Origin: an uncultured bacterium
GTDB taxonomy: Bacteria > Hydrothermota > UBA3072
Reading direction: 5' to 3'
Length of the DNA: 64,000 nucleotides
Assembly: GCA_964534175.1 (NCBI GenBank)
Contig: CAZHNS010000009.1
Location: forward strand, 460-64,459
A program made the translations under genes and the position numbers. Below, piece by piece: positions 7,121-63,038 of this stretch. The notes beneath the pieces are model-generated. The model did not search any database. It worked only from the letters and a program-made list of their open reading frames with translations, and had not been told where the DNA came from. Position 1 is the stretch's first letter; each line of letters starts with the position of its first letter.

Positions 7121-7171
7121 AAAATTCGAATAAAGCAAAGTTTTTTATAATGTTTATAGAAAGAGGTGGTT

Positions 7172-8021: not shown

Positions 8022-8083
8022 TAACCGATTGTTTATGTATGTATCATTGTATACCCTAAAAAACCAAAGGAGGTTTTTCTAGT

Positions 8084-8287: not shown

Positions 8288-8368
8288 ACTTTAGTTCTCA
8301 ATATAAAGTTTCGATAAAACAAAAGCATAAAAACAAAGACTTATTGGATTTGTTGTATTTTTGCATTA

Positions 8369-8520: not shown

Positions 8521-8586
8521 TGGAGTTGGGGGTACTTGCTTTATTATAGTAACCCTTTATATTTGTCTCTAAATGGAAAAAAATAA

Positions 8587-11259: not shown

Positions 11260-11474
11260 AAAATGATAAATAAAAATTCAAAAATGAATGTAAAAAACAT
11301 AGAAACAACGAACCATAAATTAAAATCGCTAAGAGTTTACGACTCACAGCTAACTGCTTTACCCCTAGATAGAAAAACATCCTTCTCTGCAACTTCAGAT
11401 GAGGCTAGAAATGGAACAGCGGGATGGCAGATAGCCGATAGCAGAACAACTCTGTACCTTGGATTATTTATTTT

Positions 11475-12811: not shown

Positions 12812-12834
12812 AAACTTACCCTTATATAATCATT

Positions 12835-12906
12835 TGGGGCGTCGCCAAGCGGCAAGGCACGAGATTTTGGGTCTCGCATACGTAGGTTCGAATCCTACCG
12901 CCCCAG
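12835..12906 (+). tRNA. tRNA-Gln(TTG), CCA not encoded
   Basis: Acceptor stem TGGGGCG/CGCCCCA, D arm GCCAAGCGGCAAGGC, anticodon stem CGAGA-TTTTGGG-TCTCG, T arm GTAGGTTCGAATCCTAC; usual position before prs. Confidence 0.95.
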
Positions 12907-12919
12907 GAGAGAAGAAAAA

Positions 12920-47726: not shown

Positions 47727-48896
47727 TCATTCTTCGTTAACCTGAGCTCCATGTAATCCCAAGTATTTATCAAGCGCATCTTGCAATATATCAAGACCTT
47801 CCTCCAGAATTTCGGGATTGAGATAACGATAATCAATTAAAATTTCTCCTTCATCTTCATATTGTTCGGAATGAAAGAAAACCGATGGGGCAACAAACAC
47901 TGTTCTCTTATCCCTATTATATTCGCAAAGTAACCACTCCACAAATGTATCGGCATTAGGTACAGGCAGTTTCAAAAACACAGAAGAAATACTGTTAGCA
48001 TAAGCTACAGAAACATCTTCTCTGCTCTCTATAAAATTCTGAATAATAGTCCTATTTTGTTCTATCTGTTCCAATCTATCGTGTAATATTTTAGAAGAGT
48101 CATTAAGAAAATTATCGATCAAACTAAGTTCATAAGGCGTCATCGGAAATAAATCGCTGGCAACTAACTCAATCTTCGGAGATAGGGTTTCGTGGAACAC
48201 AATTATAGTCAAATCTCCCATAGAAAAATCTCTTAAGAGACTGTTCACTCTGATTACCCTCTCATTATTAACAGAAATATCCTTCAAAAAAACCAGATTT
48301 TTAGTATCCTTCACCAGATGGCTGAGCGATTCATCAACAGCTAAAAATAACTGATAATTCCTAGAAATAAAAAGCATTCTTTCAAGGCTTTCTCTTGGAT
48401 AAAGAATGCTTCCCGAAAATCCGGGTTCAGAAAAATATAACAACTTTGTTCGTGGAGTCAAAGAATCTTCGATATCTCTTCGCAGGGGAATATCAAAATC
48501 TTCCGCAGAATTTGTCTCGATAATTTTTGCATTTAAAGAAAGAATATCAGTATATTGCTTAATAAAATAAGGGACCGGAGCAGGAATCAATATTTCATCT
48601 CCCACATCCGTAGTAGTAAAAAAAAGTAGGTAATACGCCGAAAACCTGTTGGGAAGAATCAGCAATTTATAATCATTTGAAATCCCCAAATACAATTTAA
48701 GCCTTCTTATGACCTCATCATTTGTGAGAGGCATAATATCACTCAAATGATGAGTGTTGATAGGATCCACAGAAAATAAATTTATAATTTGCACATCACG
48801 ATTTATAAAATAGGAAAATCTCTCTTTATAAAAATTAAATACGAAAGAATCGTATAAGGAAAATCTTCTCGAATTATAAATCTCACCAATTGACAT
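47727..48896 (-). CDS. Class I/II aminotransferase-fold protein with a degenerate active site (probable pseudoenzyme)
   Basis: GDEILIPAP, IEDSLTPRTK, AVDE and LPVPNADTFVEWLL..TVFVAP align with AspC-type enzymes, but the SxSK lysine, NPxNP and C-terminal R motifs are not recognisable. Confidence 0.7.
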   Translation of the reverse strand: MSIGEIYNSRRFSLYDSFVFNFYKERFSYFINRDVQIINLFSVDPINTHHLSDIMPLTNDEVIRRLKLYLGISNDYKLLILPNRFSAYYLLFFTTTDVGDEILIPAPVPYFIKQYTDILSLNAKIIETNSAEDFDIPLRRDIEDSLTPRTKLLYFSEPGFSGSILYPRESLERMLFISRNYQLFLAVDESLSHLVKDTKNLVFLKDISVNNERVIRVNSLLRDFSMGDLTIIVFHETLSPKIELVASDLFPMTPYELSLIDNFLNDSSKILHDRLEQIEQNRTIIQNFIESREDVSVAYANSISSVFLKLPVPNADTFVEWLLCEYNRDKRTVFVAPSVFFHSEQYEDEGEILIDYRYLNPEILEEGLDILQDALDKYLGLHGAQVNEE

Positions 48897-50118
48897 TATC
48901 CTCTTCTCCCAAAACAGTTAAAACAAACTTATCCGGCTTTAAGTAGTTTTGCGCTATAACATTTATCTCTTCGATGGATACATCTTCAATCTTCTTTAAA
49001 AGATCAGATATAGTAGACCGCTTTCCCTTACATATTTCTTCTTTTACATTTCTTTCCATTCTGTTTCCACTACCTTCCAAAGATATTACAATATTACCCC
49101 TCAATCTTTCCTTAGCGGTTGCGACCTCTTCTTCCGTAAATTCAAGAGAGGATAACAAATCTTTCGTTGTATTTAAAGCATCCTGTAACTTAGTTTCATC
49201 AGTAGAAAAATATATGCCAAAAATCCCGGCATCGCTGAAAAATTCGTTAAAAGTCGACACTTCGTAAACATAACTTAAATCTTGACGCAATTTTTGAAAC
49301 AAAAGGGAACTCATACCTGAACCGAGGATAGTCCCGGCAACCAGAAGTGCGAATCTCAATTCATGATTATAGGAAAAAGAAGGGAACGAAAGTGCAACAT
49401 ATTTATGGTTTAAATCGGGCTTAGCAATGGCATTTATTCTTTTGCTTCTAACCGAAGGAAACTCCCTTGTAAAAATGTCGCCTCTTTTCTTGTTAATTTT
49501 CTTGTTAATTAAATCACATAAATTATCATGATTGATTTTTCCAACAGCAGAGACGAACATACGCTCCGCAGTCCATCTCTTGTCCCAGAATTCAATTATA
49601 TCTTTAGGTTTTATATTGTTGACTGATTCAACGCTACCCATTATTAACCTTGCAAGAGGATGATTATCTCCAAAAGTACTTTTAAAAGTATAATCGAAAA
49701 GTAAACTTTCGGGAGAATCGTTAAACATTTTAATTTCCTGCAGAATTACCTCTCTTTCAGCTTCTAATGCTTTTTCTGAAAACTTTGGATTACCTATTAA
49801 ATCCGCAAGAATATCTAAAGCAAGATTAACCTCTTCCGGAAGAACATGGACATAAAGAGAAGTCCACTCCCTTGCAGTCGAAGCATTTAAATATCCTCCT
49901 CTAGATTCTATAGCGAGAGAAATTTCCCTTTCGGTGCGGTTTTTAGTACCTTTAAATACTGAATGTTCAGTAAAATGAGATATACCTGCTTTCTTCTCAT
50001 CTTCATCTCTTGAACCAACAGTTATATAAAGACCAATAATAACAGAGTATGCTGAAGGTATGAACTCAGAGCATACTGTAACCCCGGAAGGTAAAACGCT
50101 TTTTCTATAATTATCCAT
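48883..50118 (-). CDS. M16 family (pitrilysin/MPP-like, YmxG-type) zinc peptidase
   Basis: GSRDE..GISHFTEHSVFKGT (HxxEH), GG.LNAST, EREVILQEI, ILGSGMSSLLFQ.LR. Confidence 0.95.
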   Translation of the reverse strand: MDNYRKSVLPSGVTVCSEFIPSAYSVIIGLYITVGSRDEDEKKAGISHFTEHSVFKGTKNRTEREISLAIESRGGYLNASTAREWTSLYVHVLPEEVNLALDILADLIGNPKFSEKALEAEREVILQEIKMFNDSPESLLFDYTFKSTFGDNHPLARLIMGSVESVNNIKPKDIIEFWDKRWTAERMFVSAVGKINHDNLCDLINKKINKKRGDIFTREFPSVRSKRINAIAKPDLNHKYVALSFPSFSYNHELRFALLVAGTILGSGMSSLLFQKLRQDLSYVYEVSTFNEFFSDAGIFGIYFSTDETKLQDALNTTKDLLSSLEFTEEEVATAKERLRGNIVISLEGSGNRMERNVKEEICKGKRSTISDLLKKIEDVSIEEINVIAQNYLKPDKFVLTVLGEEDNVNW

Positions 50119-50269: not shown

Positions 50270-52678
50270 TCATTGCCTTTTTTTTAAAAGAAAAACCGCT
50301 GAAGTAAGAAAAATTATAACCCCTAGTAAACTTAATAAGGAGGCAATATTAAATACCCTGGACTCATAGACAAAACGCAACTCATGTTCTCCTTCCGGAA
50401 CAAAAACCCCGTAGAAAATGTAATTAGCTTTATATATTTTTTCTTTTTTACCGTCTATATAACACTTCCAATCCGGATGATAATTCTCTCGAATAATAAG
50501 AAAAGCCGTTTTACTGGTTTTAACCTCTAAAACCTTTTCATTTGCAATCATCCTAACAACATCAACATCTCCCTCGCCTTCTGAAAGGGTAATATCCGGC
50601 TTTTTCTCTAAAATAGCAATACTTCCCGGAATAAATTCCGGAGATAAAATCTCATTTAACACATCTTGAGCACTGTCAACCACCTTATACTCGTACATAA
50701 GAGAAGCTCTCGGCAAGAAGCTTTCATTTTTTAGAACTTGATACTCCCTTCCTGCAAAAGCAACATCAAAATTTGAATAGAAATCTCTCAACTCTTTTAT
50801 AACCTGCTTAACTCTTTCCGTGTAAGGAGTCAAATCTTCAGGAAGGCGAGGAACTATTAGGTATTTAACATTCAACATAGAGAGCGCATGAGGAAATTCA
50901 AAGAAATTGGGGGCACTAAACATTACACTTCCTTCGGCTCCAATAAATTTTTGATATCTACCGGGAGGATTTGGGCCATACCCGGCCACACTATACATAT
51001 CATGGTAGTGAAAATAACCACTTTTCGCCCATTTATAATTCTCGAATGGAAATATCCTATATAAACTTTTATCCTGTGAAATATATCTGGTGACATCATC
51101 CATAGAATAGTAATTCCGAGGATGAGGAGCCACATTGAGATATTTCTTATCCACAGACCACTGATCTGCAATAAGGACAAGGATTAACAGAGATATAGCT
51201 GCCTTGAATTCTATTTTTTTTATTATTACAGAATAGATTATGCCACCATTAATAATAAAAAGTAGCGTTGCCAACCACAGGCTTTTTTTCAGATTCACGA
51301 AATTCTTAGACATTACAGCAATTTTTTGCTGAAGGTTTTGCCTTCCAATCTCCGCCCAAGCCACAGAGAAATGATGCTTCATAAAATTCAAGACACCCCT
51401 ATCTCCTATATTTACAATAAGGGTCACAAACAATATTAAGCCCATCGAAACTAAAACATATAAGATTACTTTCTTCTTTTCCTCCTCGTTTCTATTCTTT
51501 AATTCGTATAAAGCCTCCGCTCCAAATCCGGCTAGCACTGCAATACCAAAACTGGTAAGAAAGAAAAACATCGATGGAGCCCTGAATTTCTTGGCCATGG
51601 GAACCAGATAATAATAGATTCTAAAAATCGGGGTATTTTTCCCCAGGGCAAGAATTAAAGTAATACCAGTGAACCAGGCGAAATATTTTATAAGACATCT
51701 TTTTTTTCTGTAAAAGAAGGCTAATCCAACCATCATTATTGGTAATATACCGAGATACCTGGAATCCAGTTTAAAGAAATTCTCTCCCCAGTAATTATCA
51801 AGTATACCAGAAAAATGGGGTGTTATCAGATTAAATAATTCCGCGGTCGGCATCGACCATGAAGTCGAGTATGCGTAACCTCTAGTCGCCCCCCTTGCCC
51901 CATAACTTAAGGACAAAGCAGGAGGAATCAACTTTATAGCAACAACCATAAAAAGAATAACTATACCGGTAAAGAAAAAACAGGATAATATACTCATTTT
52001 TTTTAATCCCATCTCTCCTCTTCTTCTAAAGATCTCATAGAGAAAGAACATGACTACCCCAATCATACTCCAGTAAGTAATTTGAATATGTCCAGCCAGT
52101 ATAAAAATCCCGGAAATCCCGCCAAAAATCAAAAAATCAGATAATCTCTTTCTTCGCATAGCTCTGGCAACGAAAAGAAAAGCAAAAGGTAAGAGCACCC
52201 CTCCAATCGTCCTACCTAAATGCCCTCCCTGAGTAGTTGTTATTATTTGACCAGCAAACATATAAGAAACTGCTCCAACCAGGGAAGAAAATTGGGATAG
52301 ATCAAATTCCCGCAATAATAGCCATATCCCCAATCCCGCCAGAAAGACATGAATTATAAACATAAAAGTCAATCCTAAATGAATCGGAAAAATCAGATAA
52401 ACCAAATTAAAAGGATATACTAAACCGCCGGCACCGCCAGTTGCGACTCTCGGCTGTCCGGAAAAATTGTAAGAATCCCACATGGGAAAAACGTGATGCT
52501 CTTTCAAATAACTTACCCATCCGTTAGTTCCCGTATATCCGGAAAGCAGATAATCTGAACCATATATCATTTTGGAAGGAGTCAAGAATCCAATAAAGTA
52601 TATTATCGATATTAAAAACAAAAAGATTATTATAAATAATTTTAATTTACTTTTATCTTTTAAAATTTTTCTATTCAT
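50270..52678 (-). CDS. YfhO family GT-C membrane protein
   Basis: PMWDSYNFSGQP, multi-TM core, KFRAP, SMLNVKY, FLPRA, ENYHPDWKCYIDGK..IYKANY.F.GVFVPEGEH. Confidence 0.9.
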   Translation of the reverse strand: MNRKILKDKSKLKLFIIIFLFLISIIYFIGFLTPSKMIYGSDYLLSGYTGTNGWVSYLKEHHVFPMWDSYNFSGQPRVATGGAGGLVYPFNLVYLIFPIHLGLTFMFIIHVFLAGLGIWLLLREFDLSQFSSLVGAVSYMFAGQIITTTQGGHLGRTIGGVLLPFAFLFVARAMRRKRLSDFLIFGGISGIFILAGHIQITYWSMIGVVMFFLYEIFRRRGEMGLKKMSILSCFFFTGIVILFMVVAIKLIPPALSLSYGARGATRGYAYSTSWSMPTAELFNLITPHFSGILDNYWGENFFKLDSRYLGILPIMMVGLAFFYRKKRCLIKYFAWFTGITLILALGKNTPIFRIYYYLVPMAKKFRAPSMFFFLTSFGIAVLAGFGAEALYELKNRNEEEKKKVILYVLVSMGLILFVTLIVNIGDRGVLNFMKHHFSVAWAEIGRQNLQQKIAVMSKNFVNLKKSLWLATLLFIINGGIIYSVIIKKIEFKAAISLLILVLIADQWSVDKKYLNVAPHPRNYYSMDDVTRYISQDKSLYRIFPFENYKWAKSGYFHYHDMYSVAGYGPNPPGRYQKFIGAEGSVMFSAPNFFEFPHALSMLNVKYLIVPRLPEDLTPYTERVKQVIKELRDFYSNFDVAFAGREYQVLKNESFLPRASLMYEYKVVDSAQDVLNEILSPEFIPGSIAILEKKPDITLSEGEGDVDVVRMIANEKVLEVKTSKTAFLIIRENYHPDWKCYIDGKKEKIYKANYIFYGVFVPEGEHELRFVYESRVFNIASLLSLLGVIIFLTSAVFLLKKRQ

Positions 52679-52919
52679 TTTACCCCCTTAAGATAACACT
52701 ACCGTATCCAGAAATCCGCAGCCATTTTCCGTTTTTAACCAATCAAAATCTTAAAAACCGCTTCATACTCTCTGTAATAAGTAAAATAACCGTCCTCTGT
52801 TGAATGTCAAGTAAAGATTTTGCTTGTCTTCATTACAATACTTCAAGAAAAAAGCCATCTAAATTATTGCAATTTAATGATTTTTAATTATAATTAGGCA
52901 ACTAAAAAAGGGTTAAATA

Positions 52920-54239
52920 GTGCTTAAAGAGAATAAAAAAGACAGAGATATCAAAGGCGAAGGTGTAATAAGAGGTTCCATTTATATAATTATAGGGCAA
53001 GTAATAGCTGGGATATTCCTATTTTTATTTCAGATTTTAACGGGCAGGTGGTTGGGGGTGAAATACTATGGTATTCTTAACATACTCTACTCCTATATAT
53101 TAGTTTTTAACGTTTTTATGACCAATGGGGTAACACACGGGCTTACAAGATATATTTCTTTTTTCCAGGCAAAAGATTTAAAAAATAAGATAAAAGATAC
53201 AATTCAGATATCATCCTTAATATACTTGATTTTTATTCTATTTTTTTTATTGATAGCAATCATCTTTAGAAAAAAAATACTCAATAATTTCTTTAATAAT
53301 ATGGAAACACTATATTTCCAATTCATTCTGGGAGTTTTATCTCTTTCGTTATACAGCTTTTACGATGGGTTACTGAGAGGGAATAGAAGATTCTATATTT
53401 CTTCAATAGGTTTTGTAATAAAAGCCCTTTCAATGCTAATTATAGTTTTCTTAATAATACCATGTTTAAAACTTTTAAAAATTCATGCTGGATGGAGTTT
53501 TGTTATAGCCCCTATTATACCGATTTTTTATTTTAAAATGGTATTAAAAAATACAATTATTTCTCCGGATTTTAAAAACCCAAATGAATTTGATACTAAA
53601 ATTGTTAAGTTTATAATTATGAGCTGTATTATAGCTGTATTAAATACATGGATAGTAAGATCGGGTCCAATCCTTTTAAAAGTAGTAGGAAAAGCTAATT
53701 CGGATTCACTCGCCGGTTTATTCAGCGCCACTATGATGCCATTAAATTTTGTAAGAACTTTAGTTCTTGCATTTTTAGGAGCTCTTTTCCCAAATCTAAC
53801 AAGAGCATACTCTCTTAAGAATGAGAATTTAATAAAAAGATATACTTATAAAAGTTTAGGTGTAGTAATAATGTTAGTTGTATCTGTAACACTTTTTTAT
53901 TATTTCTTAGGCCCTCAAACAATTAAACTACTCTACGGAAAAGATTTTTCTATCTCTAGATCTACCGCGTTTATACTATCCCTTGCAATATCTTTACTAC
54001 TACTCGGAATGTTACTCTCCAGAATACTAATGGCAAGAAACACCCCACATGTCTCAGTAATTTCATTAATATTGGGAGTAACCGGGATGTTTACATTTCT
54101 ACATCTAAGAAACATGGAACCAATGGAACTGGTTTGCTTCTCTATACTTATTTGTAATACAATATACTTCGGAATCCAATCATTATATTTAACAATAATA
54201 AAAATAAGACATCTTAAACTAACAGCTCAACAAGAATGA
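52920..54239 (+). CDS. Oligosaccharide flippase (Wzx/MOP family)
   Basis: ~12-14 hydrophobic helices, LTGRWLG..YYG, LFPNL, LLYGKDF; GTG start. Confidence 0.85.
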   Translation: MLKENKKDRDIKGEGVIRGSIYIIIGQVIAGIFLFLFQILTGRWLGVKYYGILNILYSYILVFNVFMTNGVTHGLTRYISFFQAKDLKNKIKDTIQISSLIYLIFILFFLLIAIIFRKKILNNFFNNMETLYFQFILGVLSLSLYSFYDGLLRGNRRFYISSIGFVIKALSMLIIVFLIIPCLKLLKIHAGWSFVIAPIIPIFYFKMVLKNTIISPDFKNPNEFDTKIVKFIIMSCIIAVLNTWIVRSGPILLKVVGKANSDSLAGLFSATMMPLNFVRTLVLAFLGALFPNLTRAYSLKNENLIKRYTYKSLGVVIMLVVSVTLFYYFLGPQTIKLLYGKDFSISRSTAFILSLAISLLLLGMLLSRILMARNTPHVSVISLILGVTGMFTFLHLRNMEPMELVCFSILICNTIYFGIQSLYLTIIKIRHLKLTAQQE

Positions 54240-55447
54240 GAATTCTTTATATAACCACCGCTTTTCCAAGAAACTCCAACGATCCCATTACACCATGGTT
54301 AGTTAAAACAGTCACAATGCTAAACGAAAAGGGAATTAAAATAAATGTCTTTACATCTTCATATAAGGGCCTAATTTTCAACCGAATAAAGAACATCGAC
54401 GTTTTCCGATTTCGTTATTTTATAAAGTCTTTCGAGAGGTTAACACATGAAGAAATGGCTCTCGATAGAGTAAGAAAGGGCGGAATATATAAAATATTAC
54501 CTCTATTCTATATATTGTTTGGGATAATTGGAATAATTAAACATTGCAAAAAAGAAAAATATGATATAATACACGTTCACTGGCCATTTCCACATTTCAT
54601 TTTTGGGTATATTGCCTCAAGAATGCTTAGAGTTCCTCTTGTTTGCACATTTCACGGAGTCGGTATTCGTTTTATCAAGAAATCATCTATAAATCTGGAT
54701 TTTTTTCTTAACTGGATTATTAAAAAAAGTGATCTAATTACAGTAAACTCAACTCATACTGCTAAAGAACTCATCCCTTTCAACCCTAAAAATATATCTA
54801 TAATACCTTTCGGGGCTGCCGTGGAGCCTGAAGACATTTCAAAAAAAGAAAACATCTCGAAAGAAAATAACCACGATACAACGAAACTTCTATTTGTGGG
54901 AAGATTGGTTGAAAGAAAAGGCGTGGAATATCTCCTCCAGGCTGTAAAAAACTTAAAAATGAAAAAGAAAGTCAAATTAATAATAGTAGGCGAAGGTGGA
55001 CTAAAAGAAAGTTTATTAAAAAAGAGAAATCAATTGAAACTATCAGATAAAGATGTTAAATTTGCAGGAAAAATATCGGGGGGGAAATTAAACGAATATT
55101 ATAAAAACTGTGATATCTTTGTACTTCCGGCTATTATAGATTCAAAAGGGGATACTGAAGGTTTGGGAGTCGTTCTTCTTGAGGCATTGAGTTTTAAAAA
55201 GGCAGTCATTGCTTCAAGAGTTGGGGGCATCGTTGATATTATCAAAGATAAAAAAACCGGTTTATTAGTGAAAGAAAAATCTGCCGAAGAATTAGCCTCT
55301 GCCATTGAATTTCTCATAAACAATCCAAAAGAAAAAGAAAAACTAGCTAGAAAAGGGTATGAATTTCAAAAAAAGAATTTCAGTTGGGATAAAATTTTAT
55401 CCTCAATAATCTCACAGTATAAAAATATAACTTCTAAGACCGTTTAG
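54236..55447 (+). CDS. GT4 glycosyltransferase
   Basis: DIIHVHW, FVGRLVERKG, IVGEG, DIFVLP..TEGLGVVLLEA, IASRVGGI.DII. Confidence 0.95.
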   Translation: MRILYITTAFPRNSNDPITPWLVKTVTMLNEKGIKINVFTSSYKGLIFNRIKNIDVFRFRYFIKSFERLTHEEMALDRVRKGGIYKILPLFYILFGIIGIIKHCKKEKYDIIHVHWPFPHFIFGYIASRMLRVPLVCTFHGVGIRFIKKSSINLDFFLNWIIKKSDLITVNSTHTAKELIPFNPKNISIIPFGAAVEPEDISKKENISKENNHDTTKLLFVGRLVERKGVEYLLQAVKNLKMKKKVKLIIVGEGGLKESLLKKRNQLKLSDKDVKFAGKISGGKLNEYYKNCDIFVLPAIIDSKGDTEGLGVVLLEALSFKKAVIASRVGGIVDIIKDKKTGLLVKEKSAEELASAIEFLINNPKEKEKLARKGYEFQKKNFSWDKILSSIISQYKNITSKTV

Positions 55448-55458
55448 AATAAGACTTA

Positions 55459-56079
55459 TCAGTATTTAACAATATTTCCTCTACGCATAAAAAAATTCTT
55501 TAACCGTCTCAGAATCTTCCTTCCAGGTTTAGTGGGTTCCAGGTGATAATAATTCACCTTCGGGAAATCGGTATCAGGCACAGCTTTTCCAAGGAAAGGA
55601 CACAATTTTTCCCATCCGTCACCATTACAAATATCCATAATTAATAGATTCCCTCTATTTTTAAAAAAGTCTTTAACTTTTTGGTTATGCTCTTTGTAAC
55701 ATTTAAGAAATGTTTCTTCGGAGAAATGAGTAAGGCCTGAAAATATCTTGGTCATAATATATTTATTAGCTTTTTTCCAGGGAACCACAAATTTAAAATG
55801 TCTTCTGGCTGAATCTAACCACTTATTCTCTTCTCTCACTGTAAGGATAAATTTTGCATCAGGATATAATTCGTATAACTCTTTATATAAAAAAGCGATA
55901 GAACCTATAAATGCATCTCCTCTCTTCAGGAATTGAGAATTTTTAAGAATTTTATTCCTGTATTCCTGCGCTATCTCAACAGGATCATGAAATACCTTAA
56001 AATTAAGTATTTCCAATGCCAGAGCCAAACTGGAGGTAGCAGTCTTAGGATAACCTATTCCAAATGTTTTTTCACTCAT
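55459..56079 (-). CDS. Sulfotransferase (Sulfotransfer_4-like family)
   Basis: 5'-PSB loop GIGYPKTATSSL, PDAKFILTVR..W..S, DGWEKLCPFLGKAVP..FPKVN. Start ATG 56079 after GGAG (alternative 56091). Confidence 0.9.
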   Translation of the reverse strand: MSEKTFGIGYPKTATSSLALALEILNFKVFHDPVEIAQEYRNKILKNSQFLKRGDAFIGSIAFLYKELYELYPDAKFILTVREENKWLDSARRHFKFVVPWKKANKYIMTKIFSGLTHFSEETFLKCYKEHNQKVKDFFKNRGNLLIMDICNGDGWEKLCPFLGKAVPDTDFPKVNYYHLEPTKPGRKILRRLKNFFMRRGNIVKY

Positions 56080-56080
56080 T

Positions 56081-57193
56081 TTATCTCCCATTTATACATT
56101 GATAATAAAACTTTTCCTGCTGTCTTGATATCCAATCCCAATTATACTTCCTTGCCCATTTCCTACCTTCTTCTCCAAGCCTCTTCCTCATTTTATTATT
56201 ATGTATAATCTCATACATAGAACTGCCCAAGCCTTTCACATCCTCGGGGCTAACTAAGATTCCTGTCTTGCTGTCTATTATAACTTCTTGAAGAGAGGAA
56301 GTTCTGGTACCTATTATTGCCTTACCAGATGCCGAAGCTTCCATAGCTACAATCCCCCAAGATTCAAATCTAGACGGCATACATACAAAAAGGGCGCTGG
56401 ATAATAATTGCCTCTTTTTCTCCCTTTCAAAAATCTTTCCAATAAATTTAATCCTGCTCTTCATTGTTGATTTACTTATCAGATGTTTTAACTTTTCCTC
56501 GTCTTTACCTCCCCCAGCTATCACTAATTCTATCCCTTTTACCCTCACAGCAACTTTCTCAAAAGCCTTTATTAGAATATCAATTCCTTTCTGGTAAATA
56601 TCTATTCTACCCAGAAATAGGATATAGGCCTTCTCGGAAACCACAGCATCAAACAAATACTCATCTACCCCGTTGGGAATAACTACATTTTTTGTACTCT
56701 TATTAATCAAAAATTTGTTTTCCAATTTCTTTTTTATATAAGTAGATACCGAAATAAAATTATCATAAAGTTTTAATCCGAGCTTTTCAAACACAATAAA
56801 AAATATACCGATTAAACCATGAGTTTTTATTGCATGTTCACTGTAAAGATTCTGAATTGATGCTATAACTGGTCTTTTAGTGAAAAGAGGGATAAAACAG
56901 GGAGAGTGCGCCGAAAATTCATCTATAATTAAATCATATTCCAGCTGTTTTATATATTTCCAAGCCATTAAACCAAAAGAAAGTCTGCTCAGAAAGTAAC
57001 TTTTTTTAGATCCTATCCTAATATATTTTATACCATCTTTTATTTGGTCCCTGGCTCCCGGATAATTACCGGTAATTATAGTTATATCATGTTTTTCCGA
57101 TAGCCTTCTTGAGATTTCATAGACCCTTAAAGCTCCACCACCTCCTACCCAAGGATTTCCTAAATCATCATAGATTAAATGAATTATCTTCAC
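56081..57193 (-). CDS. GT4 glycosyltransferase
   Basis: P..GGGA.R, IPNGVD, FLGRI..QKG, PSRFESWGIVAMEA; GTG start. Confidence 0.95.
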   Translation of the reverse strand: MKIIHLIYDDLGNPWVGGGGALRVYEISRRLSEKHDITIITGNYPGARDQIKDGIKYIRIGSKKSYFLSRLSFGLMAWKYIKQLEYDLIIDEFSAHSPCFIPLFTKRPVIASIQNLYSEHAIKTHGLIGIFFIVFEKLGLKLYDNFISVSTYIKKKLENKFLINKSTKNVVIPNGVDEYLFDAVVSEKAYILFLGRIDIYQKGIDILIKAFEKVAVRVKGIELVIAGGGKDEEKLKHLISKSTMKSRIKFIGKIFEREKKRQLLSSALFVCMPSRFESWGIVAMEASASGKAIIGTRTSSLQEVIIDSKTGILVSPEDVKGLGSSMYEIIHNNKMRKRLGEEGRKWARKYNWDWISRQQEKFYYQCINGR

Positions 57194-57197
57194 GAAA

Positions 57198-58757
57198 TTA
57201 AATATATCCTAAATCTTTCAGGTGATCCTTCACTGATGCGTCTTCCTTCTCCGAAAGAAAGAAAGTCTTCTTTTGCTCATAAGGGAGATTCTTGAAAACT
57301 TCTTTAACAGAACCTGCTTCAATATAATCCTTCAGAATATTACCATCAACGTCTTCCGGAATTGGTAACTCGCCCAAGGCACAGGCAGTAGGGAATACAT
57401 CTCTGACAGAAGCTCTTTCTATTTCCTTGCCTTCTATTATACCTTGACCATGCATAAGAATAATCCCATCCATCGCACAAACATGATGCCCTTCCAGAGC
57501 AGGTCGGTCCAATTTCTTATCGAATAATCTTCCCGGCAAATTTGTATTTAGCCGGTAATTTCTTGTAGTTGTATATGTTAAATCTGGCATTTCCTCAAAA
57601 AATTCTCCTTTATATAATTCCCACTTAGTTTTTGCATCAAGAAAAATACTCTCTCCATTTGCCGGATCTTTTGCCTCTAAAAGCAATTTTTTCAAATCTT
57701 CTGCTGTTTTTTTTCTACTACCAGTATCCGGATAATATTCCGGGTTTAAATAGATTCCTGCATACCAATTTGCATATGCTTTTGTTTTACTCCAATCTAC
57801 TTTTGAACTCATAGTTTCTCTGACAATTTGTTTTTTAAAGTTATCGGGCAATAAATACTGTACAAAATTAAATTTTTTTACCACCGCTATTCCAAATTTA
57901 TAAATCAAGTTAGAAAACTTTCCTTTAATATGTTTCGCTCGTTTTAAATAACCATTGTCTTCTAAGTACTGATTTATATAAAAATATTTCTGTGGGGCAT
58001 CAGTAAAACCGTGGTCTGAAACAAAAATTATTCGGTCTGGTTTTTCCTGTTCGTATATCTTTTCTACATTCTTTTCCAACCTTTTTAAATATTCTAATAC
58101 CTTGCTTTTATCCTTCCAGAAATAATGCATAAAATCATCAAATTCCTTAAAATTTATCATAAATAGATTCATCTCGTTTTTAGCAAGAAGTTTTAATACC
58201 CACTCGGTCCTTTCTTCCATAATTTGAATAAGAGCCTTTTCCACCCCTGGTTTGTCAATATTGCTATCACGAAACCACTTTTTTTCTATATTTATTCTGT
58301 ACCCCTCAATTTCATCAATAAGTTCAGGTGGGTAAGTAAAATCCAAAGAACCTCTTGGCGTCATAAAACCTGCTATAAGAAATCCATTAACTTCTGTGGG
58401 AGGATAACTTACTGGTATATTTACAATACCAACTTTACTCCCAAATTCAGAAGCCCACTCCCAAAGAGACCAGGTTTTTATATCAGTAAAATTAATAAAT
58501 TGAGCTGAAGAGAAATGTTCAGGATCAAATCCTTTTTTATCACTTTTATATAAGAAAGGCCCAATTTTTGCAGGATTTTTGCCTGTAAATATCACAGGCC
58601 AGGCCAGCATCGAATATGACGGAAGCGTACTTTTTAACTTGCCAAAGGCACCCTGCTTTGCAAGTTTAGAAAAAAAAGGTAAATCACCATTTTCAATCCA
58701 TTCTTTTACTTCCTTGTAGGGGGCTCCATCAAGCCCAATAATAAAGAGTTTTTTCAT
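57198..58757 (-). CDS. Alkaline phosphatase superfamily protein (type I phosphodiesterase/NPP-like), paralogue 2
   Basis: IIGLDGA, STLPSYSMLAW..FTGKNP, NIPVSYPP, FDDFMH, VSDHGF, EGHH, C-terminal HLKDLGYI. Confidence 0.9.
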   Translation of the reverse strand: MKKLFIIGLDGAPYKEVKEWIENGDLPFFSKLAKQGAFGKLKSTLPSYSMLAWPVIFTGKNPAKIGPFLYKSDKKGFDPEHFSSAQFINFTDIKTWSLWEWASEFGSKVGIVNIPVSYPPTEVNGFLIAGFMTPRGSLDFTYPPELIDEIEGYRINIEKKWFRDSNIDKPGVEKALIQIMEERTEWVLKLLAKNEMNLFMINFKEFDDFMHYFWKDKSKVLEYLKRLEKNVEKIYEQEKPDRIIFVSDHGFTDAPQKYFYINQYLEDNGYLKRAKHIKGKFSNLIYKFGIAVVKKFNFVQYLLPDNFKKQIVRETMSSKVDWSKTKAYANWYAGIYLNPEYYPDTGSRKKTAEDLKKLLLEAKDPANGESIFLDAKTKWELYKGEFFEEMPDLTYTTTRNYRLNTNLPGRLFDKKLDRPALEGHHVCAMDGIILMHGQGIIEGKEIERASVRDVFPTACALGELPIPEDVDGNILKDYIEAGSVKEVFKNLPYEQKKTFFLSEKEDASVKDHLKDLGYI

Positions 58758-58763
58758 GGAAGG

Positions 58764-58791
58764 AATATAAAATTAACGATTGAAATGTCAA
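58764..58791 (-). promoter_or_regulatory. Promoter TTGACA-N16-TATATT, 6 nt from the ATG (apparently leaderless)
   Basis: TGTCAA at 58786-58791, AATATA at 58764-58769; ATG at 58757. Confidence 0.75.
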
Positions 58792-58865
58792 GGGTAGTAC
58801 AAAATGATATAATGCCTATCGTTTAAAACAAAGTAAGAATCTTAGATACAGAAATAATTTTGGAT

Positions 58866-60155
58866 TTAACTTCCGAGATTAAGTGTTATCCGGAGAGGAT
58901 CTTGAATAGAATCCACTTTATCTAAATCGATTCCTCTTCCAAAGATAACCGCATCTTCATAAGTATGCATACCATCAATCGCACCGGGCTTCTGGCAAAC
59001 CTCACCAGTATTTACATTTCCTTTTAAATCGAAACCCCATTTCGGATGAACTATTACGTCCGCCGCGTTCTCAATATAATCTCCAGAATATATCTCTTCA
59101 CGCAGGAAAGCTTTTTCTATTATCTGTTCACCCTCAGGGGATTTTAAATTCAGTAATTTTTCTTTTAGCTCTTCTCGTAATTTACCATAATCGTCAGTTG
59201 AAACAGAACCCTTTGCTTCTCTCTCCTTCAGATTTATAAAAATCCTTCCCGGAATAAGTGAATAAGCTTTCGAGTTAGGACTGAGTTCTGTAACATTTCT
59301 AGGATTATCAACATCCCAAAGAAGATAGCCTTCATCCTCTAAAAACTGATTTAACTGAACATTATATTTTACTCTGCAGAAACCATGGTCGGATAAAACA
59401 ATAAATATATCTTCATCACCCAGTAATTCATACGTTTTCCCTATCCATTCATCCAATTTAGTATAGAATCTGTCAAAGTCGCCCCTGAACTCACCGCCAT
59501 CCTCATAATCTCCCCAGAAAAAATGGTTAATTCTGTCTGTTTCCATTATATGACATTGAGCAAGAAAATAATCATCCTTTGCCAATAAATCAAAGAATAC
59601 TTCCATCCTTATATCGAGCGCTTTATGTAACTCATCCATAAATTTTCTTCTATTAGTATGTCCAAATCTTGGGTCGACATCGATAATATATCCCTTTTCC
59701 TTTAAATACCCAACGTAAGAAGAAGGCTTCACCACTTTTTCGATACTTGGTGTAAGGAAACCGGATATTAAAATACCGTTAACTTCCTCAGGTGGATAAG
59801 TGACGGGAACATTCAGGACAAGAACTTTCTTTCCCTCTTCGGAAAGTTTCTTCCAGAGAGTTTTGGCTGTTCTGTCCGATGCAAGAGGAATTTTTAAAGT
59901 AAAAGGTTCGTTATTTCTATCTACAAAACCAAAAATAGAATGTTCCGCGGGATTTTTTCCGGTCAGATATGAAGTCCATGCTACCGAAGAAACAGTTGGA
60001 TAAACCGAATTATACTTTTTTAAATTTTCATTTTCACTTGTTATCTTTCTTATATTCTTAAACCTTCCCTCATCTAACTCGGCTTTTAAAAAGCTGTACG
60101 GAACGCCATCTATACCTAAAACAACTATTTTTTTCTTTTTTTTCCTAAAGAGCAT
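58866..60155 (-). CDS. Alkaline phosphatase superfamily protein (type I phosphodiesterase/NPP-like), paralogue 1
   Basis: VLGIDGV, SVYPTVSSVAW..YLTGKNP, NVPVTYPP, TDRINH, LSDHGF, DGMH. Confidence 0.9.
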   Translation of the reverse strand: MLFRKKKKKIVVLGIDGVPYSFLKAELDEGRFKNIRKITSENENLKKYNSVYPTVSSVAWTSYLTGKNPAEHSIFGFVDRNNEPFTLKIPLASDRTAKTLWKKLSEEGKKVLVLNVPVTYPPEEVNGILISGFLTPSIEKVVKPSSYVGYLKEKGYIIDVDPRFGHTNRRKFMDELHKALDIRMEVFFDLLAKDDYFLAQCHIMETDRINHFFWGDYEDGGEFRGDFDRFYTKLDEWIGKTYELLGDEDIFIVLSDHGFCRVKYNVQLNQFLEDEGYLLWDVDNPRNVTELSPNSKAYSLIPGRIFINLKEREAKGSVSTDDYGKLREELKEKLLNLKSPEGEQIIEKAFLREEIYSGDYIENAADVIVHPKWGFDLKGNVNTGEVCQKPGAIDGMHTYEDAVIFGRGIDLDKVDSIQDPLRITLNLGS

Positions 60156-60170
60156 TAAAATCTCCCTTAT

Positions 60171-60932
60171 TTATAGGACTTTAATCAGAGTAGCCAACCC
60201 AAGACAAACAGTTATCACTCCAATCGCAATAACGTGCTTTTTTACATCACTATTTTTTACTACACGAACCGCAAAAGGTATAGCAATAATACTTCCAAAT
60301 AACAATGGCAAAACGGGCATAAAGTTGATAATTCTTACTTTCAAAAGATAAACTAAAAGAGCTACCAGACAGGTTATTGCTTCGGTAAATGAACTTATAC
60401 TAACCGAACTTTTTGAATCTAAACCGGATAAAATCTGCCCGCTTGTAATAATCGGACCATAACCTCCTCCGCTTATTCCCTTGTTAAACGAAGCAAAAAA
60501 ACCAAGAAAATTTATTTTCACCCAGCTAAAACCAATCTTTCTTTCCCTAAATACAAGTACCAGCACACCCATCAAAAAAGCTATTAAACCAACATATATT
60601 TTCACAAAGAATTGTGAAAGATTTACAGCAAGAAATGCAGCGCTTCCGCCGCCTATTATACTAAAAAAGGTCAAGACCATCGCAATTTTAAATGATTTAC
60701 TGTCAACGGAAAAATCTACATTTCCAGAACGGTGATGAAATATAGCAGAAAGTATTCCCGTAAAAACTTGAACGAAAAGAAGAGAAGGTACAATTTGAAT
60801 GGGATCGAACCCAAGTAAAATAAAAGAAGGCACAACAATAGTACCAAAACCTTCGCCGAGCGCAGTATTCAAAAACTGCGCGATAAAAGATACAGCTATT
60901 ATTAGAATTATAACAGAAACACTAAATTCCAC
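60171..60932 (-). CDS. TauE/SafE family sulfite/sulfate transporter
   Basis: TALGEGFGTIVVP, GISGGGYGP, 8 TM; GTG start. Confidence 0.9.
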   Translation of the reverse strand: MEFSVSVIILIIAVSFIAQFLNTALGEGFGTIVVPSFILLGFDPIQIVPSLLFVQVFTGILSAIFHHRSGNVDFSVDSKSFKIAMVLTFFSIIGGGSAAFLAVNLSQFFVKIYVGLIAFLMGVLVLVFRERKIGFSWVKINFLGFFASFNKGISGGGYGPIITSGQILSGLDSKSSVSISSFTEAITCLVALLVYLLKVRIINFMPVLPLLFGSIIAIPFAVRVVKNSDVKKHVIAIGVITVCLGLATLIKVL

Positions 60933-60941
60933 GAAACTTTC

Positions 60942-62174
60942 TCAAAGAATAATACCACCGGCAACTACGTCATTGCCTCTTATTAGAACAAATCTTCCCA
61001 TTTCCTTTACGTCTCCAAATTTTGTAAAAGCAAGCGGTTTTTTTGTTTTTATCTCTACTTCCCCTATCTCGAGATTATTAATCGAAGAAGCTTTTTCCTC
61101 TAGAACCTCTAGCGAGGAAGAATCTACTCTCTCTTTAATTTCTGCAATATTTGCCTTGGTCTCCTGCGTTGCCAAACGGAGACCTATTTTTTCGTCCTTG
61201 CTGAAAGGTTCTTTTGACAACCATATAAGACTGGACTGGATCTTATCCCCTATAGTAAGATCCTTTTCTTCTACACAAAGAACAATCCCTCTCTCCAGGA
61301 AAACAGGGTCAGCAGTTGTAATACCAATCGATTCTCCTGCCACAGCTTCATTCACCGATTCTCTAAACTTTTCTATGGATTTTACAGTGGTCTTACCTCC
61401 ACCGGGGAGTATTTTTACTTCCATTCCGGACGAAAGAGTTCCCGCTTCGATTCTGCCCACCGCAATCCTCTTACCGGATATTTTATAAACATCCTGAACT
61501 GGAAAAATAAGACTCTTATTTTCCGGAGGAACTTCGTTCTTTAGAGAATCGAGTGATTCAAGTACGGTTTTACCTTTATACCATTTCATATTCTTGGAAT
61601 GCTTTGCAACATTATCTCCCTTTAAAGCCGAAATAGGTATGTAATAATCAGGTTTTAAATTTACCGAATTTAAAAATTGATGAACTTCCTCTTTAAGACG
61701 ATTGAAATGAGCTTCTTCATAATTTACTATGTCCATTTTATTTATTACTACAATTATTTGCTCCATTCCCAACATTGAAACCAGATTAGCATGTCTCTTT
61801 GTTTGCTCTCCGACTCCTTCCTTTGCATCCACAATCAACAAAGCAGCTTCTGCCTGGGAAGCTCCTGTCAGCATATTTTTAACAAATTCGACATGTCCCG
61901 GTGCATCTATAATTACATATTCTCTTTTTTTAGTGTGGAAAAAAGTATGAGCAGTATCTATTGTTATACCCTGCTCTCTCTCTTCTCTTAAGTGATCCAT
62001 TATAAAGGCGAATTCCATCTCTCCATCCATCCTTTCTTCTGAGGCTTTTTTAAGTTCGGCTATCTTGTCAGGGGGGAGAGAATTCGTATCATAAAAAAGA
62101 CGCCCTATTAAAGTGGACTTTCCATGGTCAATATGTCCGACCATGACAAACTTTAGAGGATTTTTACCAGACAT
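60942..62174 (-). CDS. cysN: Sulfate adenylyltransferase subunit 1 (GTPase), no fused APS kinase
   Basis: GHIDHGKSTLIGRL, EREQGITID, DAPGH, TGASQA, NKMD, SALKGDNV, FPVQDV, GRFVL; 410 aa. Confidence 0.93.
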   Translation of the reverse strand: MSGKNPLKFVMVGHIDHGKSTLIGRLFYDTNSLPPDKIAELKKASEERMDGEMEFAFIMDHLREEREQGITIDTAHTFFHTKKREYVIIDAPGHVEFVKNMLTGASQAEAALLIVDAKEGVGEQTKRHANLVSMLGMEQIIVVINKMDIVNYEEAHFNRLKEEVHQFLNSVNLKPDYYIPISALKGDNVAKHSKNMKWYKGKTVLESLDSLKNEVPPENKSLIFPVQDVYKISGKRIAVGRIEAGTLSSGMEVKILPGGGKTTVKSIEKFRESVNEAVAGESIGITTADPVFLERGIVLCVEEKDLTIGDKIQSSLIWLSKEPFSKDEKIGLRLATQETKANIAEIKERVDSSSLEVLEEKASSINNLEIGEVEIKTKKPLAFTKFGDVKEMGRFVLIRGNDVVAGGIIL

Positions 62175-62180
62175 AAAGAA

Positions 62181-62981
62181 CTACATATATCCGAGAGCAC
62201 GCAGTTTCTGCATCATATAATCTGACTCTTTATCCTGGGCTCTACCACTTCTCTCGGAAATATCTGTTTCCTTAAGCTCTTTAATTATTTTATCAAGAGT
62301 ATCAGCATTTGAATCGACCGGGGCAACACAGGGCTCGCAACCAATACTCCTGAAACGTTTGCCTTTTTTCGCGAAATAAAGACTCACCACCGGAATTTCT
62401 TCTTTTTTAATATATTTCCAAATATCTAATTCCGTCCAACCAAGAAGAGGATGTACCCGTAGATGTTCTTCTTCTTTAGCCTTTGATTTATACTGGTCCC
62501 ATAGCTCCGGAGGCTGATTTTTGTAATCCCATTCGAAATCTTCATCACGCGGAGAAAAAACTCTTTCTTTAGCTCTTATCCCATGCTCATCTCTTCTTAT
62601 ACCAAGGTAGAGAGCTCTAAACCCGTATTTATTGATAGCATCCCTTAAGGCATTGGTTTTCAACTGGGTACAACACTCCAATTTAGCCTTCCCCGGTCCC
62701 ATACCTCCGGCAATAGCTTTCTCATTACGATGTACAATAAGTTTTAGATTCCATTTTTTCGCGTATTCATCTCTAAACTCATAAATTTCTTTAAACTTAT
62801 AACCGGTATCTATATGCACCACCGGAAACGGCACTTCTCCCAAAAAAGCTTTCCTTATAAGATGAATAAGCGTTGTAGAATCCTTTCCAATTGACCATAA
62901 AGCAGCTACCTTCTGGAACTGATTATATGCTTCTCTTATAATATAAATACTGTTATTTTCTAATTTTTTTAAATGATCCAT
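62181..62981 (-). CDS. cysD: Sulfate adenylyltransferase subunit 2 with CC...CxxC motif
   Basis: LE..SIYIIRE, WSIGKDS, HIDTG.KF, GIRRDE..RAKER.FS.RD..WD..NQPPELW, RVHPL..WTE.DIW.Y. Start ATG 62981 after GGAGG; adjacent to cysN. Confidence 0.92.
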   Translation of the reverse strand: MDHLKKLENNSIYIIREAYNQFQKVAALWSIGKDSTTLIHLIRKAFLGEVPFPVVHIDTGYKFKEIYEFRDEYAKKWNLKLIVHRNEKAIAGGMGPGKAKLECCTQLKTNALRDAINKYGFRALYLGIRRDEHGIRAKERVFSPRDEDFEWDYKNQPPELWDQYKSKAKEEEHLRVHPLLGWTELDIWKYIKKEEIPVVSLYFAKKGKRFRSIGCEPCVAPVDSNADTLDKIIKELKETDISERSGRAQDKESDYMMQKLRALGYM

Positions 62982-63010
62982 TATTCCTCCCGAAGAAGAA
63001 TTTCCGCAAT

Positions 63011-63038
63011 AAATTAATATTTTAACCATTAATGTCAA
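63011..63038 (-). promoter_or_regulatory. cysD operon promoter TTGACA-N16-TAATTT
   Basis: TGTCAA at 63033-63038, AAATTA at 63011-63016. Confidence 0.6.

Follow-up and report, generated by a model that had tools for sequence, protein, structure and literature searches.

A glycan-assembly locus of an uncultured Hydrothermota bacterium points to a widespread alkaline-phosphatase-fold variant of glycan sulfation

Biological sulfation is usually described as transfer from 3'-phosphoadenosine 5'-phosphosulfate (PAPS) by a P-loop sulfotransferase. Here we analyse a glycan-assembly locus (positions 50270-63038) in a 64,000-nucleotide stretch of DNA, hereinafter the window, of contig CAZHNS010000009.1 from an uncultured bacterium (GenBank assembly GCA_964534175.1; GTDB lineage Hydrothermota, UBA3072); among named relatives, candidate division WOR-3 comes closest to the window's proteins, at 80% identity. 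The evidence points to a widespread form of glycan sulfation, as yet essentially uncharacterised, that is based on enzymes of the alkaline phosphatase (AlkP) fold and of which the locus is one instance. Specifically, genes for ATP sulfurylase (cysD, cysN), a permease (tauE) and two AlkP-fold enzymes (AlkP1, AlkP2) are followed on the minus strand by genes for a GT4 glycosyltransferase and a sulfotransferase (Sulfotransfer_4); a wzx-like flippase gene and a second GT4 gene on the plus strand converge on them, and yfhO diverges from wzx (Table 1). The first-pass annotation of the window had described this arrangement as a dedicated glycan-sulfation locus without cysC, the gene for adenosine 5'-phosphosulfate (APS) kinase. 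Gene order and strands were reproduced by an open reading frame (ORF) map with Pfam and NCBIfam family scans, and the locus is borne out as one for glycan assembly at the cytoplasmic face that has dedicated genes for taking up and activating sulfate and lacks cysC. The observation holds, and its interpretation finds partial support.

The coupling of AlkP1 to sulfate-activating enzymes is tight and phylogenetically broad. Relatives of AlkP1 were collected by a pattern scan of one genome per species (401 relatives), and the best 80 were analysed with 10-kb flanks by ORF calling, phmmer, clustering and Pfam annotation of cluster representatives (individual loci carry L numbers). AlkP1 is 41-54% identical across WOR-3, Omnitrophota, Bacillota, Planctomycetota, Nitrospirota, KSB1, Zixibacteria and Chloroflexota, and the named sources of homologues include Calderihabitans, Halothermothrix, Omnitrophota and Ruminiclostridium. 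In 66 of the 80 loci AlkP1 adjoins sulfate-activation genes, either CysDN (type A, 25 loci) or the ATP sulfurylase Sat and CysC (type B, 41 loci). The AlkP1 start usually lies within ~25 nt of the stop codon of CysN, TauE or CysC, and in 35 of 51 measured cases no more than 120 nt separate the stop of the upstream gene from the AlkP1 GxDG motif. When 1.84 billion representatives were searched with an AlkP1 profile, 4707 proteins matched at E≤1e-30, and ~120 cluster representatives scored better than 1e-100. In literature searches that covered COG3379, PF01663 with sulfate and APS-dependent AlkP sulfotransferases, we found no paper describing AlkP1.

Type A loci have the order cysD-cysN-(TauE or DUF2061)-AlkP1, followed by glycan genes for GT2, GT4, Wzx, Wzm/Wzt, epimerases and aminotransferases, and come from WOR-3/Stahlbacteria, Omnitrophota, Planctomycetia, Spirochaetia, Calderihabitans, Nitrospirota, Blautia and Auribacterota. 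They often also encode AlkP2-like proteins of 515-585 amino acids, or cytoplasmic PF00884 proteins with Thr, not Cys, at the nucleophile position. Type B loci, whose sources include KSB1, Zixibacteria, Calditrichota, Chloroflexota, Syntrophobacterales and Latescibacterota, have the order (Na/sulfate symporter-Usp-79-aa protein)-Sat-(AlkP460)-CysC-AlkP1. Here the symporter (PF00939) takes TauE's place beside the activation genes, the identity of CysC was confirmed by PF01583 (1.7e-61), and AlkP460 is a paralogue, 52-64% identical within its group and ~30% identical to AlkP1. The two activation modules are mutually exclusive: none of the 25 type A loci has CysC or Sat, and none of the 41 type B loci has CysDN.

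The coupling extends to gene fusions. Sat and AlkP460 are fused in at least seven loci (L041 at 6608-9244, L044, L045, L059, L065, L069 and L082), and probably also in L090 and L121; the fusion protein of ~870 amino acids has PUA_2 and ATP-sulfurylase (PF01747) domains at residues 1-380 and a Phosphodiest domain (PF01663) at residues 421-810. Another protein, P0388 (L170, 8001-10124), joins an AlkP1-like domain (residues 8-397) to a divergent CysD-like PP-loop domain (PAPS_reduct, residues 472-668), which aligns with the window CysD through its very end (E 3e-26), and terminates in ...QLRTLGYM. Its locus contains nonulosonic-acid glycan genes (NeuB/CMP-transferase) and another AlkP gene, with no CysN within 8 kb. 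The idea, already in the first-pass annotation, that the AlkP proteins are linked to sulfur genes in other genomes is very strongly supported for AlkP1; for AlkP2 the link is indirect, via a C-terminal tail described below.

Four Halanaerobiales loci (L009 at 10001-13590, L029, L054 and L085, including Halothermothrix orenii) show another arrangement, in which AlkP1 is followed by a PlsY-like gene (PF02660) and by a gene for AlkP547, an AlkP protein with the same tail; no cys genes lie within 10 kb. The PlsY-like neighbour hints at a lipid acceptor, in organisms that can be cultivated. Some Chloroflexota AlkP1 genes adjoin a gene for a Wzy_C protein.

Three loci (L033, L049 and L053) have a genuine CysQ directly 3' of AlkP1, giving the order Sat-CysC-AlkP1-CysQ. 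If PAPS is the substrate of AlkP1, gene order and pathway order coincide, which puts AlkP1 at the consuming step. Judged from its gene neighbours, the probable role of AlkP1 is to accept the sulfonucleotide that CysD or CysC provides. Canonical bacterial sulfation combines cysDN(C) or NodPQ with PAPS-dependent sulfotransferases such as NodH, Stf0, BT0416 and RaxST. The window locus is like these modules in placing dedicated sulfate-activation genes within the locus for a sulfated product and in encoding a P-loop sulfotransferase. The canonical modules have a fused or adjacent APS kinase, whereas the window locus and 24 related loci have none within 10 kb; in this locus and its relatives a conserved AlkP-fold enzyme occupies the place that CysC or the consuming enzyme has in the canonical modules.

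A serious rival, especially for AlkP460, reads the AlkP proteins as helpers of a conventional PAPS pathway. CysC would be encoded elsewhere, canonical sulfotransferases would do all the sulfation, AlkP1 and AlkP460 would clear pyrophosphate (PPi) or nucleotide by-products, and AlkP2-like proteins would carry out phosphodiester chemistry on the glycan or its carrier. We consider this account possible, if on the whole rather unlikely. It suits a fold that resembles a nucleotide pyrophosphatase (NPP), the fusion of AlkP460 to Sat, which is the producer of PPi, and the precedent of stramenopiles, in which ATP sulfurylase, APS kinase and pyrophosphatase occur as fusions. However, AlkP1 and AlkP460 occur together in ~27 loci, so that at most one of them is the pyrophosphatase, and AlkP1 follows CysC, which makes no PPi, not Sat. 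With AlkP460 as the Sat-fused paralogue, and with AlkP1 also present beside Wzy, Wzm/Wzt or PlsY-like genes without cys genes nearby, AlkP1 as the pyrophosphatase of ATP sulfurylase is disfavoured. AlkP1 and AlkP460 are very highly conserved, as would suit enzymes with small fixed substrates, and some Sat/CysC operons (L051, L076) lack adjacent glycan genes, like a self-contained supply of PAPS.

The role of a CysQ analogue, a phosphatase for 3'-phosphoadenosine 5'-phosphate, is weakened for both paralogues by the true CysQ that directly follows AlkP1 in the three loci named above; as AlkP460 is present in L049 too, that locus needs neither AlkP for this step. Loci in which the two conserved paralogues occur together with CysQ fit the helper account less well, and AlkP1 genes that lack cys neighbours are left unexplained by it. 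The helper account draws further support from Sulfotransfer_4, which is of the PAPS type, and from canonical Sulfotransfer_1/3 proteins in a few type B loci. On the other side, Sulfotransfer_4 is missing from most cysDN-AlkP1 relatives, no canonical sulfotransferase is recurrent in type A loci, and in Halobacterium sulfotransfer has been proven for AlkP-fold proteins that bear this tail (PMC11980604).

AlphaFold2 models of AlkP1 and AlkP2 have a mean predicted local distance difference test (pLDDT) score of 91.7 and 88.6, respectively. The closest folds of both are phosphonoacetate hydrolase PhnA and NPPs (NPP1 and Xanthomonas NPP), with template-modelling scores of 0.5-0.65 (0.55-0.65 for AlkP1) and 12-18% identity; a sequence search found no closer solved relative. 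Across 19 sequences, AlkP1 residues D16, S56, D207, H211, D256, H257 and H397 do not vary, and S56 corresponds to PhnA Thr64. The AlkP2 metal ligands D10, D207/H211, D248/H249 and H425 are likewise invariant in its family, with Ser at the nucleophile position. Both proteins therefore have the marks of the NPP/PhnA branch, namely PF01663, the bimetal ligand set (D; DxxxH; DH; H) and a Ser/Thr nucleophile, and are probably active enzymes, because all bimetal ligands and the nucleophile Ser are invariant. As a rule, NPPs hydrolyse at phosphorus and are secreted or ecto-enzymes; in contrast, AlkP1 and AlkP2 have no signal peptide or N-terminal transmembrane segment (the catalytic Asp is at residue 10-16), contain extra inserts, and lie among sulfate and glycan genes.

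To our knowledge, the only AlkP-fold glycan sulfotransferases shown genetically are Agl30 and Agl31 of one archaeon, reported in 2025. These Halobacterium salinarum proteins (VNG1056C and VNG1057C) have an AlkP-like core and resemble sulfatases, and deletion and expression in Haloferax identify them as sulfotransferases for a dolichol-phosphate (DolP)-linked tetrasaccharide (PMC11980604; names from PMC12624080). Both papers are silent about the sulfate donor. Native C-termini read from the published tagging primers are ...HLEDLGYL for Agl30 and ...LEELGYT for Agl31 (PMC11980604), and AlkP2 ends in ...HLKDLGYI (...EDASVKDHLKDLGYI); the likeness was noticed in this analysis and is not named by the authors of the papers. 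AlkP2 also shares with them the AlkP-like core, the cytoplasmic location, a presumed lipid-linked glycan at the cytoplasmic face as context, and a place in a glycan cluster; AlkP1 shares core, location and glycan-cluster setting. They differ in being archaeal, and no partner of the AlkP1 type and no connection with CysDN, Sat or CysC has been described for them. The agl30 and agl31 primer sequences gave no match in the genome contigs scanned. Haloferax Agl7 (HVO_2046), needed for sulfation of DolP-hexose, was considered as a further relative; the papers do not state its fold, and it is kept as a lead only.

Since the tail is common to Agl30 and Agl31, the bacterial tail-bearing AlkP2-like and sulfatase-like proteins are probably of the same functional class, and AlkP2 is probably an AlkP-type glycan sulfotransferase. 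AlkP2 often directly follows AlkP1 (L013, L022-L024, L027, L091, L093, L095 and L101). Outside the survey, AlkP2-like genes on three long contigs were inspected (L087-L089). They lie in a GT4-AlkP2-YfhO locus (L087), in an archaeal AglB locus beside a PMT_2 GT-C protein, and in a locus with MurJ-like and Bac_transf genes. On these neighbourhoods, the tie of AlkP2 is to GT4/GT-C glycan assembly, and to sulfate only via the tail and its frequent position after AlkP1. The 'AlkP pair' of the first-pass annotation is too simple a unit, as some AlkP2-like proteins occur in glycan loci without cys genes within 10 kb.

These contexts also bear on the idea that the AlkP enzymes have nothing to do with sulfate and instead add or remove phosphate-linked glycan substituents (phosphoglycerol, phosphocholine, phosphonate or sugar-1-phosphate), being near cys genes only via shared surface-glycan loci. 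The AlkP superfamily does include phospho-group transferases of the LtaS, EptA and OpgB type, phosphonate or CDP-alcohol cassettes take the same position in L005 and L006, and L087-L089 have AlkP2-like genes without cys genes. Nonetheless, we regard this idea as distinctly unlikely, in view of the 66 of 80 loci, from many phyla, in which AlkP1 immediately adjoins CysN or CysC, the Sat-AlkP460 and AlkP1-CysD-like fusions, operons made up only of transporter, Sat, CysC and AlkP genes, and the tail shared with CysD and CysC.

The tail consists of an acidic stretch followed by [KR]LxxLGY[LIMVF], and was first seen in a CysC alignment as an extension of ~35 amino acids ending in ...YSxEEEExIxKRLxDLGYL; E. 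coli CysC presumably lacks it. A regular expression applied to the last residues found the tail in 38 of 40 CysC, 22 of 23 CysD, 11 of 14 ribbon-helix-helix (RHH)-like, 6 of 7 DUF2061 and 4 of 6 sulfatase-like proteins, and on 21 AlkP proteins, nearly all of the AlkP2-like class. It is absent from AlkP1, AlkP460, Sat, CysN and the glycosyltransferases of the surveyed loci. Among homologues, 85 of 120 for AlkP2 (one from Bathyarchaeota) have the tail, versus 1 of 120 for AlkP1. Only 2 of the 177 window ORFs have it, CysD (...MMQKLRALGYM, 62184-62216) and AlkP2 (...VKDHLKDLGYI, 57201-57245). The CysD tail is ancestral, as Pseudomonas syringae CysD (PDB 1zun) ends in ...KKRQGY(F). We found no paper on the tail in literature searches.

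The tail of CysC goes with the presence of an AlkP partner. In counts made by eye over 80 listed CysC loci, AlkP460 or AlkP1 is a neighbour of 22 of 26 tail-bearing CysC versus 8 of 54 tail-less CysC (Fisher p = 1.8e-9). Most tail-less CysC belong to ordinary CysH-Sat-CysC operons. The AlkP2 model shows the tail as a helix (residues 503-515; mean pLDDT ~88 for 501-510 and 72 for 511-519), which hints that the tail packs against an AlkP domain. We hypothesize that the tail is a docking peptide that would join its bearers to tail-less AlkP enzymes for direct hand-over of the sulfonucleotide. A membrane-targeting C-terminal helix is less likely, with the tail on both a soluble RHH-like protein and the integral membrane protein DUF2061.

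The RHH-like protein of 79 amino acids (~75) starts many Sat/CysC/AlkP operons (L033 at 7690-7914, L051 at 3835-4074, L094, L102, L107, L168 and others). It has the pattern KVTIKIPRxLY...GFxSVxEFIVYVLRDI, then the LGY tail, and no Pfam match; it could act as a regulator, sensing the system's state.

CysD and CysN both score above curated cutoffs, as expected of a GTP-coupled ATP sulfurylase. The claims that CysN is unfused and that cysC is in neither operon are confirmed: of the 632 positions in the bifunctional CysNC model, CysN covers 22-430 only, it has no fused APS-kinase domain (PF01583), and the 64-kb window contains no CysC, Sat or CysQ by tblastn (five CysC queries) and a CysC HMM run at E≤10 on all stop-to-stop ORFs. 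CysDN without its CysC complement is thus what the window holds of a PAPS pathway. The proposed route without CysC fares less simply in the neighbourhoods, since CysC is absent from all 25 CysDN-AlkP1 loci but precedes AlkP1 in 41 others, which means that the system is not intrinsically CysC-free. A CysC profile scan of genome contigs, led by a WOR-3 query, was uninformative on this point, as none of the 80 loci listed comes from a cysDN-AlkP1 genome.

The exclusion of CysC from all CysDN-type loci favours APS as the donor there. GTP-coupled CysDN can accumulate APS, and Sat depends on the kinase to pull its reaction. For this organism we nevertheless take direct use of APS as a tentative reading, rather less than probable. 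A signature of APS versus PAPS in AlkP1 was sought and rejected, as only R95/M and a C-terminal extension of ~20 amino acids differ and neither is interpretable.

CysDN without CysC also occurs in direct APS reducers, such as Corynebacterium, and cysDN-tauE-AlkP1 could in principle serve sulfur assimilation or general sulfur metabolism and not the neighbouring glycan genes. We find this very improbable. The first-pass annotation had reported no reductive genes; cysD is indeed the sole PAPS_reduct-family match in the window (single query), and for sulfite reductase the statement holds for the Pfam-scanned ORFs, a scan that is not exhaustive. No CysH, sulfite reductase or cysteine synthase was found in the scanned parts of the window, none of these is recurrent in the 25 related loci, and the cysDN-tauE-AlkP1 module stays beside glycan genes across phyla.

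Sulfotransfer_4 appears to be a canonical P-loop PAPS-dependent sulfotransferase by domain, homology and motifs. Its closest solved relatives are Schistosoma sulfotransferases (4mua, E 2.8e-16), which we take to be PAPS-dependent, and the aligned segments 'YPKTATSSL' and 'LTVREENKWLDSARR' were read by eye as the 5'-phosphosulfate-binding (5'-PSB) and 3'-phosphate-binding (3'-PB) motifs. Among close relatives the gene was found in L004 only, and L005, L006 and L008 lack it while retaining cysDN-AlkP1. Being sporadic and missing from most close relatives, it cannot account for the conservation of cysDN-AlkP1. No Sulfotransfer family occurs in two or more of 139 neighbour representatives, so canonical sulfotransferases are not recurrent in CysDN-type loci. 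In L004, the closest full relative, the copy (8340-8980) is split into two overlapping ORFs of 115 and 109 amino acids, which may reflect a frameshift, a pseudogene or a sequencing error.

In metagenome-assembled genomes with an AlkP1 65-92% identical to that of the window, the core cysD-cysN-(tauE)-AlkP1 is constant and the cassette between AlkP1 and wzx/yfhO varies. In WOR-3/Stahlbacteria relatives tauE is conserved between cysN and AlkP1, and yfhO is kept at 59-85% identity in L004, L006 and L008. The L004 cassette matches that of the window (55459-58757) except for the split Sulfotransfer_4. L008 (11362-16093) instead has a deacetylase, a cytoplasmic sulfatase-family protein, a pyruvyl transferase and an epimerase; L005 (7461-13205) has a phosphonate pathway (phosphoenolpyruvate mutase, decarboxylase, iron-dependent alcohol dehydrogenase) with a CDP-alcohol transferase, and L006 (6250-7624) has a CDP-alcohol transferase with a nucleotidyl transferase. 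The swapping of cassettes looks like serotype-like variation in the decoration of an anionic glycan. In L004, a gene for a protein with TPR and LamG domains (4273-5514) is inserted between AlkP1 and AlkP2 on the opposite strand.

Table 1. Genes of the locus and the intergenic gap between AlkP1 and AlkP2 (positions in the window; E-values and bit scores from family scans, with cutoffs where given)
Feature	Position	Strand	Evidence and remarks
cysD, catalytic subunit of ATP sulfurylase	62181-63038	-	PF01507 PAPS_reduct 6.9e-45; NF003587 364 bits (cutoff 195); PDB 1zun_A E 5.7e-70
cysN, GTPase subunit of ATP sulfurylase	60942-62174	-	410 aa; TIGR02034 365.2 bits (cutoff 336.1)
tauE, TauE/SafE-family permease	60171-60932	-	PF01925 6.1e-28
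AlkP1, cytoplasmic NPP/PhnA-like alkaline-phosphatase-superfamily enzyme	58866-60155	-	PF01663 7.6e-34
AlkP1-AlkP2 gap, 108 bp	58758-58865	-	sigma-70-like site TTGACA-16-TATATT at 58791-58764, 11/12 consensus match
AlkP2, cytoplasmic NPP-like AlkP enzyme	57198-58757	-	PF01663 8.8e-29
GT4 glycosyltransferase	56081-57193	-	PF00534 3.1e-37; close-packed with AlkP2, overlaps the sulfotransferase gene
Sulfotransfer_4, P-loop sulfotransferase	55459-56091	-	PF17784 4.5e-36; 125 bits (cutoff 22.8)
Second GT4 glycosyltransferase	54236-55447	+	PF00534 1.7e-42
Wzx-like flippase, MOP family	52920-54239	+	PF01943 1.5e-11; 44.7 bits (cutoff 28.2); NF041503 far under cutoff
YfhO-family membrane protein (GT-C-like)	50270-52678	-	PF09586 6.5e-16; 58 bits

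As listed, cysD begins with a TTG at 63038, 19 codons beyond its homologues; translation more probably begins at the 62981 ATG (MDHLKKLE...), giving 266 amino acids like the homologues. The cysN start lies 7 bp downstream of cysD. On the 5' side of cysD, ~300 bp of AT-rich intergenic DNA are followed by a divergent ORF that leaves the window, and Rfam gave no riboswitch there (its sole match in the window is one tRNA). Sigma-70-like sites are not commoner in the region than in shuffled sequence, and the site in the AlkP1-AlkP2 gap is a consensus match only.

YfhO glycosylates teichoic acids in Bacillus and Listeria together with a CsbB/GtrB-type GT2 enzyme and a flippase. The window locus is similar in having a yfhO-family gene beside glycosyltransferase and flippase genes. 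It differs in using GT4 enzymes and a Wzx-like flippase, with no GT2 polyprenyl-phosphate-sugar synthase or GtrA-type flippase between 50270 and 63038, so that of the three components YfhO alone is present; the host, moreover, is probably diderm, as the window has genes for a TonB receptor, an OEP protein, an RND pump and an LpxL-like acyltransferase. The Wzx-like protein is present in the locus without a Wzy polymerase or an initiating phosphoglycosyl transferase, genes for which may be located elsewhere. On family membership, YfhO would transfer the flipped glycan.

Elsewhere in the window there are further genes of interest. An M16 peptidase gene and a 389-aa ORF without a Pfam match lie directly downstream of yfhO (47727-50118, minus strand), and the pair keeps its position in L013 (M16, hyp389, dUTPase, LpxL-like, GT4). 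A protein of 890 amino acids (8587-11259, plus strand) with a TMEM260-like O-mannosyltransferase domain (PF11028, 6.6e-45) is the second GT-C-type enzyme of the window and may bear on attachment of the surface glycan. Large secreted proteins with C-terminal sorting domains (CHU_C, Por_Secre_tail) of the type IX secretion system are encoded at 2857-4455, 36035-38767 and 42674-44419; such cargo is in keeping with an FCB-related WOR-3 lineage, and surface glycosylation may target these proteins.

Taken together, these data suggest the following pathway. TauE, by its family and gene context, would import sulfate, and CysD and CysN, whose family assignment is firm, would make APS. AlkP1 would take the sulfonucleotide, as APS from CysD here and as PAPS where CysC is its neighbour, and AlkP2 would put the sulfate on a lipid-linked oligosaccharide built by the GT4 enzymes. 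The tail on CysD and AlkP2 would dock onto AlkP enzymes without a tail, for direct transfer of the labile sulfonucleotide. Sulfotransfer_4 would be an add-on requiring PAPS, and Wzx would flip the product for transfer by YfhO. We judge the chances of this pathway as a whole, with AlkP1 receiving the sulfonucleotide and AlkP2 sulfating a lipid-linked glycan, to be evenly balanced.

Several points weigh against it. NPP-type sites normally attack phosphorus, which on APS leads to release of sulfate, not to transfer, and the conservation of AlkP1 could equally fit PPi or a nucleotide as the small fixed metabolite. Agl30 and Agl31 are reported as PF00884-sulfatase-like, whereas AlkP1 and AlkP2 are PF01663 NPP-like, in a comparison by description and tail only, and AlkP1 is without the tail that marks the two archaeal enzymes. 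Neither activation module is within reach in 14 of the 80 loci, some of which are short contigs, and AlkP1 of Halanaerobiales and of some Chloroflexota has no cys neighbours. The three AlkP2-like genes in L087-L089, in glycan loci without cys genes within 10 kb, indicate that their chemistry need not involve sulfate. As to the donor, sequence comparison shows no donor-related residue switch between CysDN-linked and CysC-linked AlkP1, and the PAPS-type 3'-phosphate motif kept by Sulfotransfer_4 suggests that the cell has PAPS, and hence an APS kinase encoded elsewhere.

A broader form of the proposal is that AlkP-fold enzymes replace P-loop sulfotransferases in a widespread system of mostly uncultured anaerobic phyla. 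AlkP1 would take the sulfuryl group from APS without PAPS or an APS kinase (from PAPS in the presence of Sat/CysC), tail-bearing AlkP2-like and sulfatase-like enzymes would deliver it to lipid-linked glycans, and CysD or CysC, the RHH-like regulator and a DUF2061 anchor would be assembled via an RLxxLGY[LIM] tail. In this full extent we think the proposal unlikely to hold.

The analysis adds three observations to the biology of sulfation. A conserved AlkP enzyme is coupled to sulfate-activating enzymes by gene order and, in a few proteins, by fusion. One tail links CysD and CysC to putative transferases, a putative regulator, a membrane protein and proven archaeal enzymes. In addition, the loci fall naturally into a CysDN type, which lacks CysC, and a Sat type, which has it. 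If correct, a tail-docked AlkP system would also explain the source of sulfate for Agl30 and Agl31, and direct use of APS would be a second route of biological sulfation. AlkP-type sulfation enzymes could also serve for making sulfated glycans.

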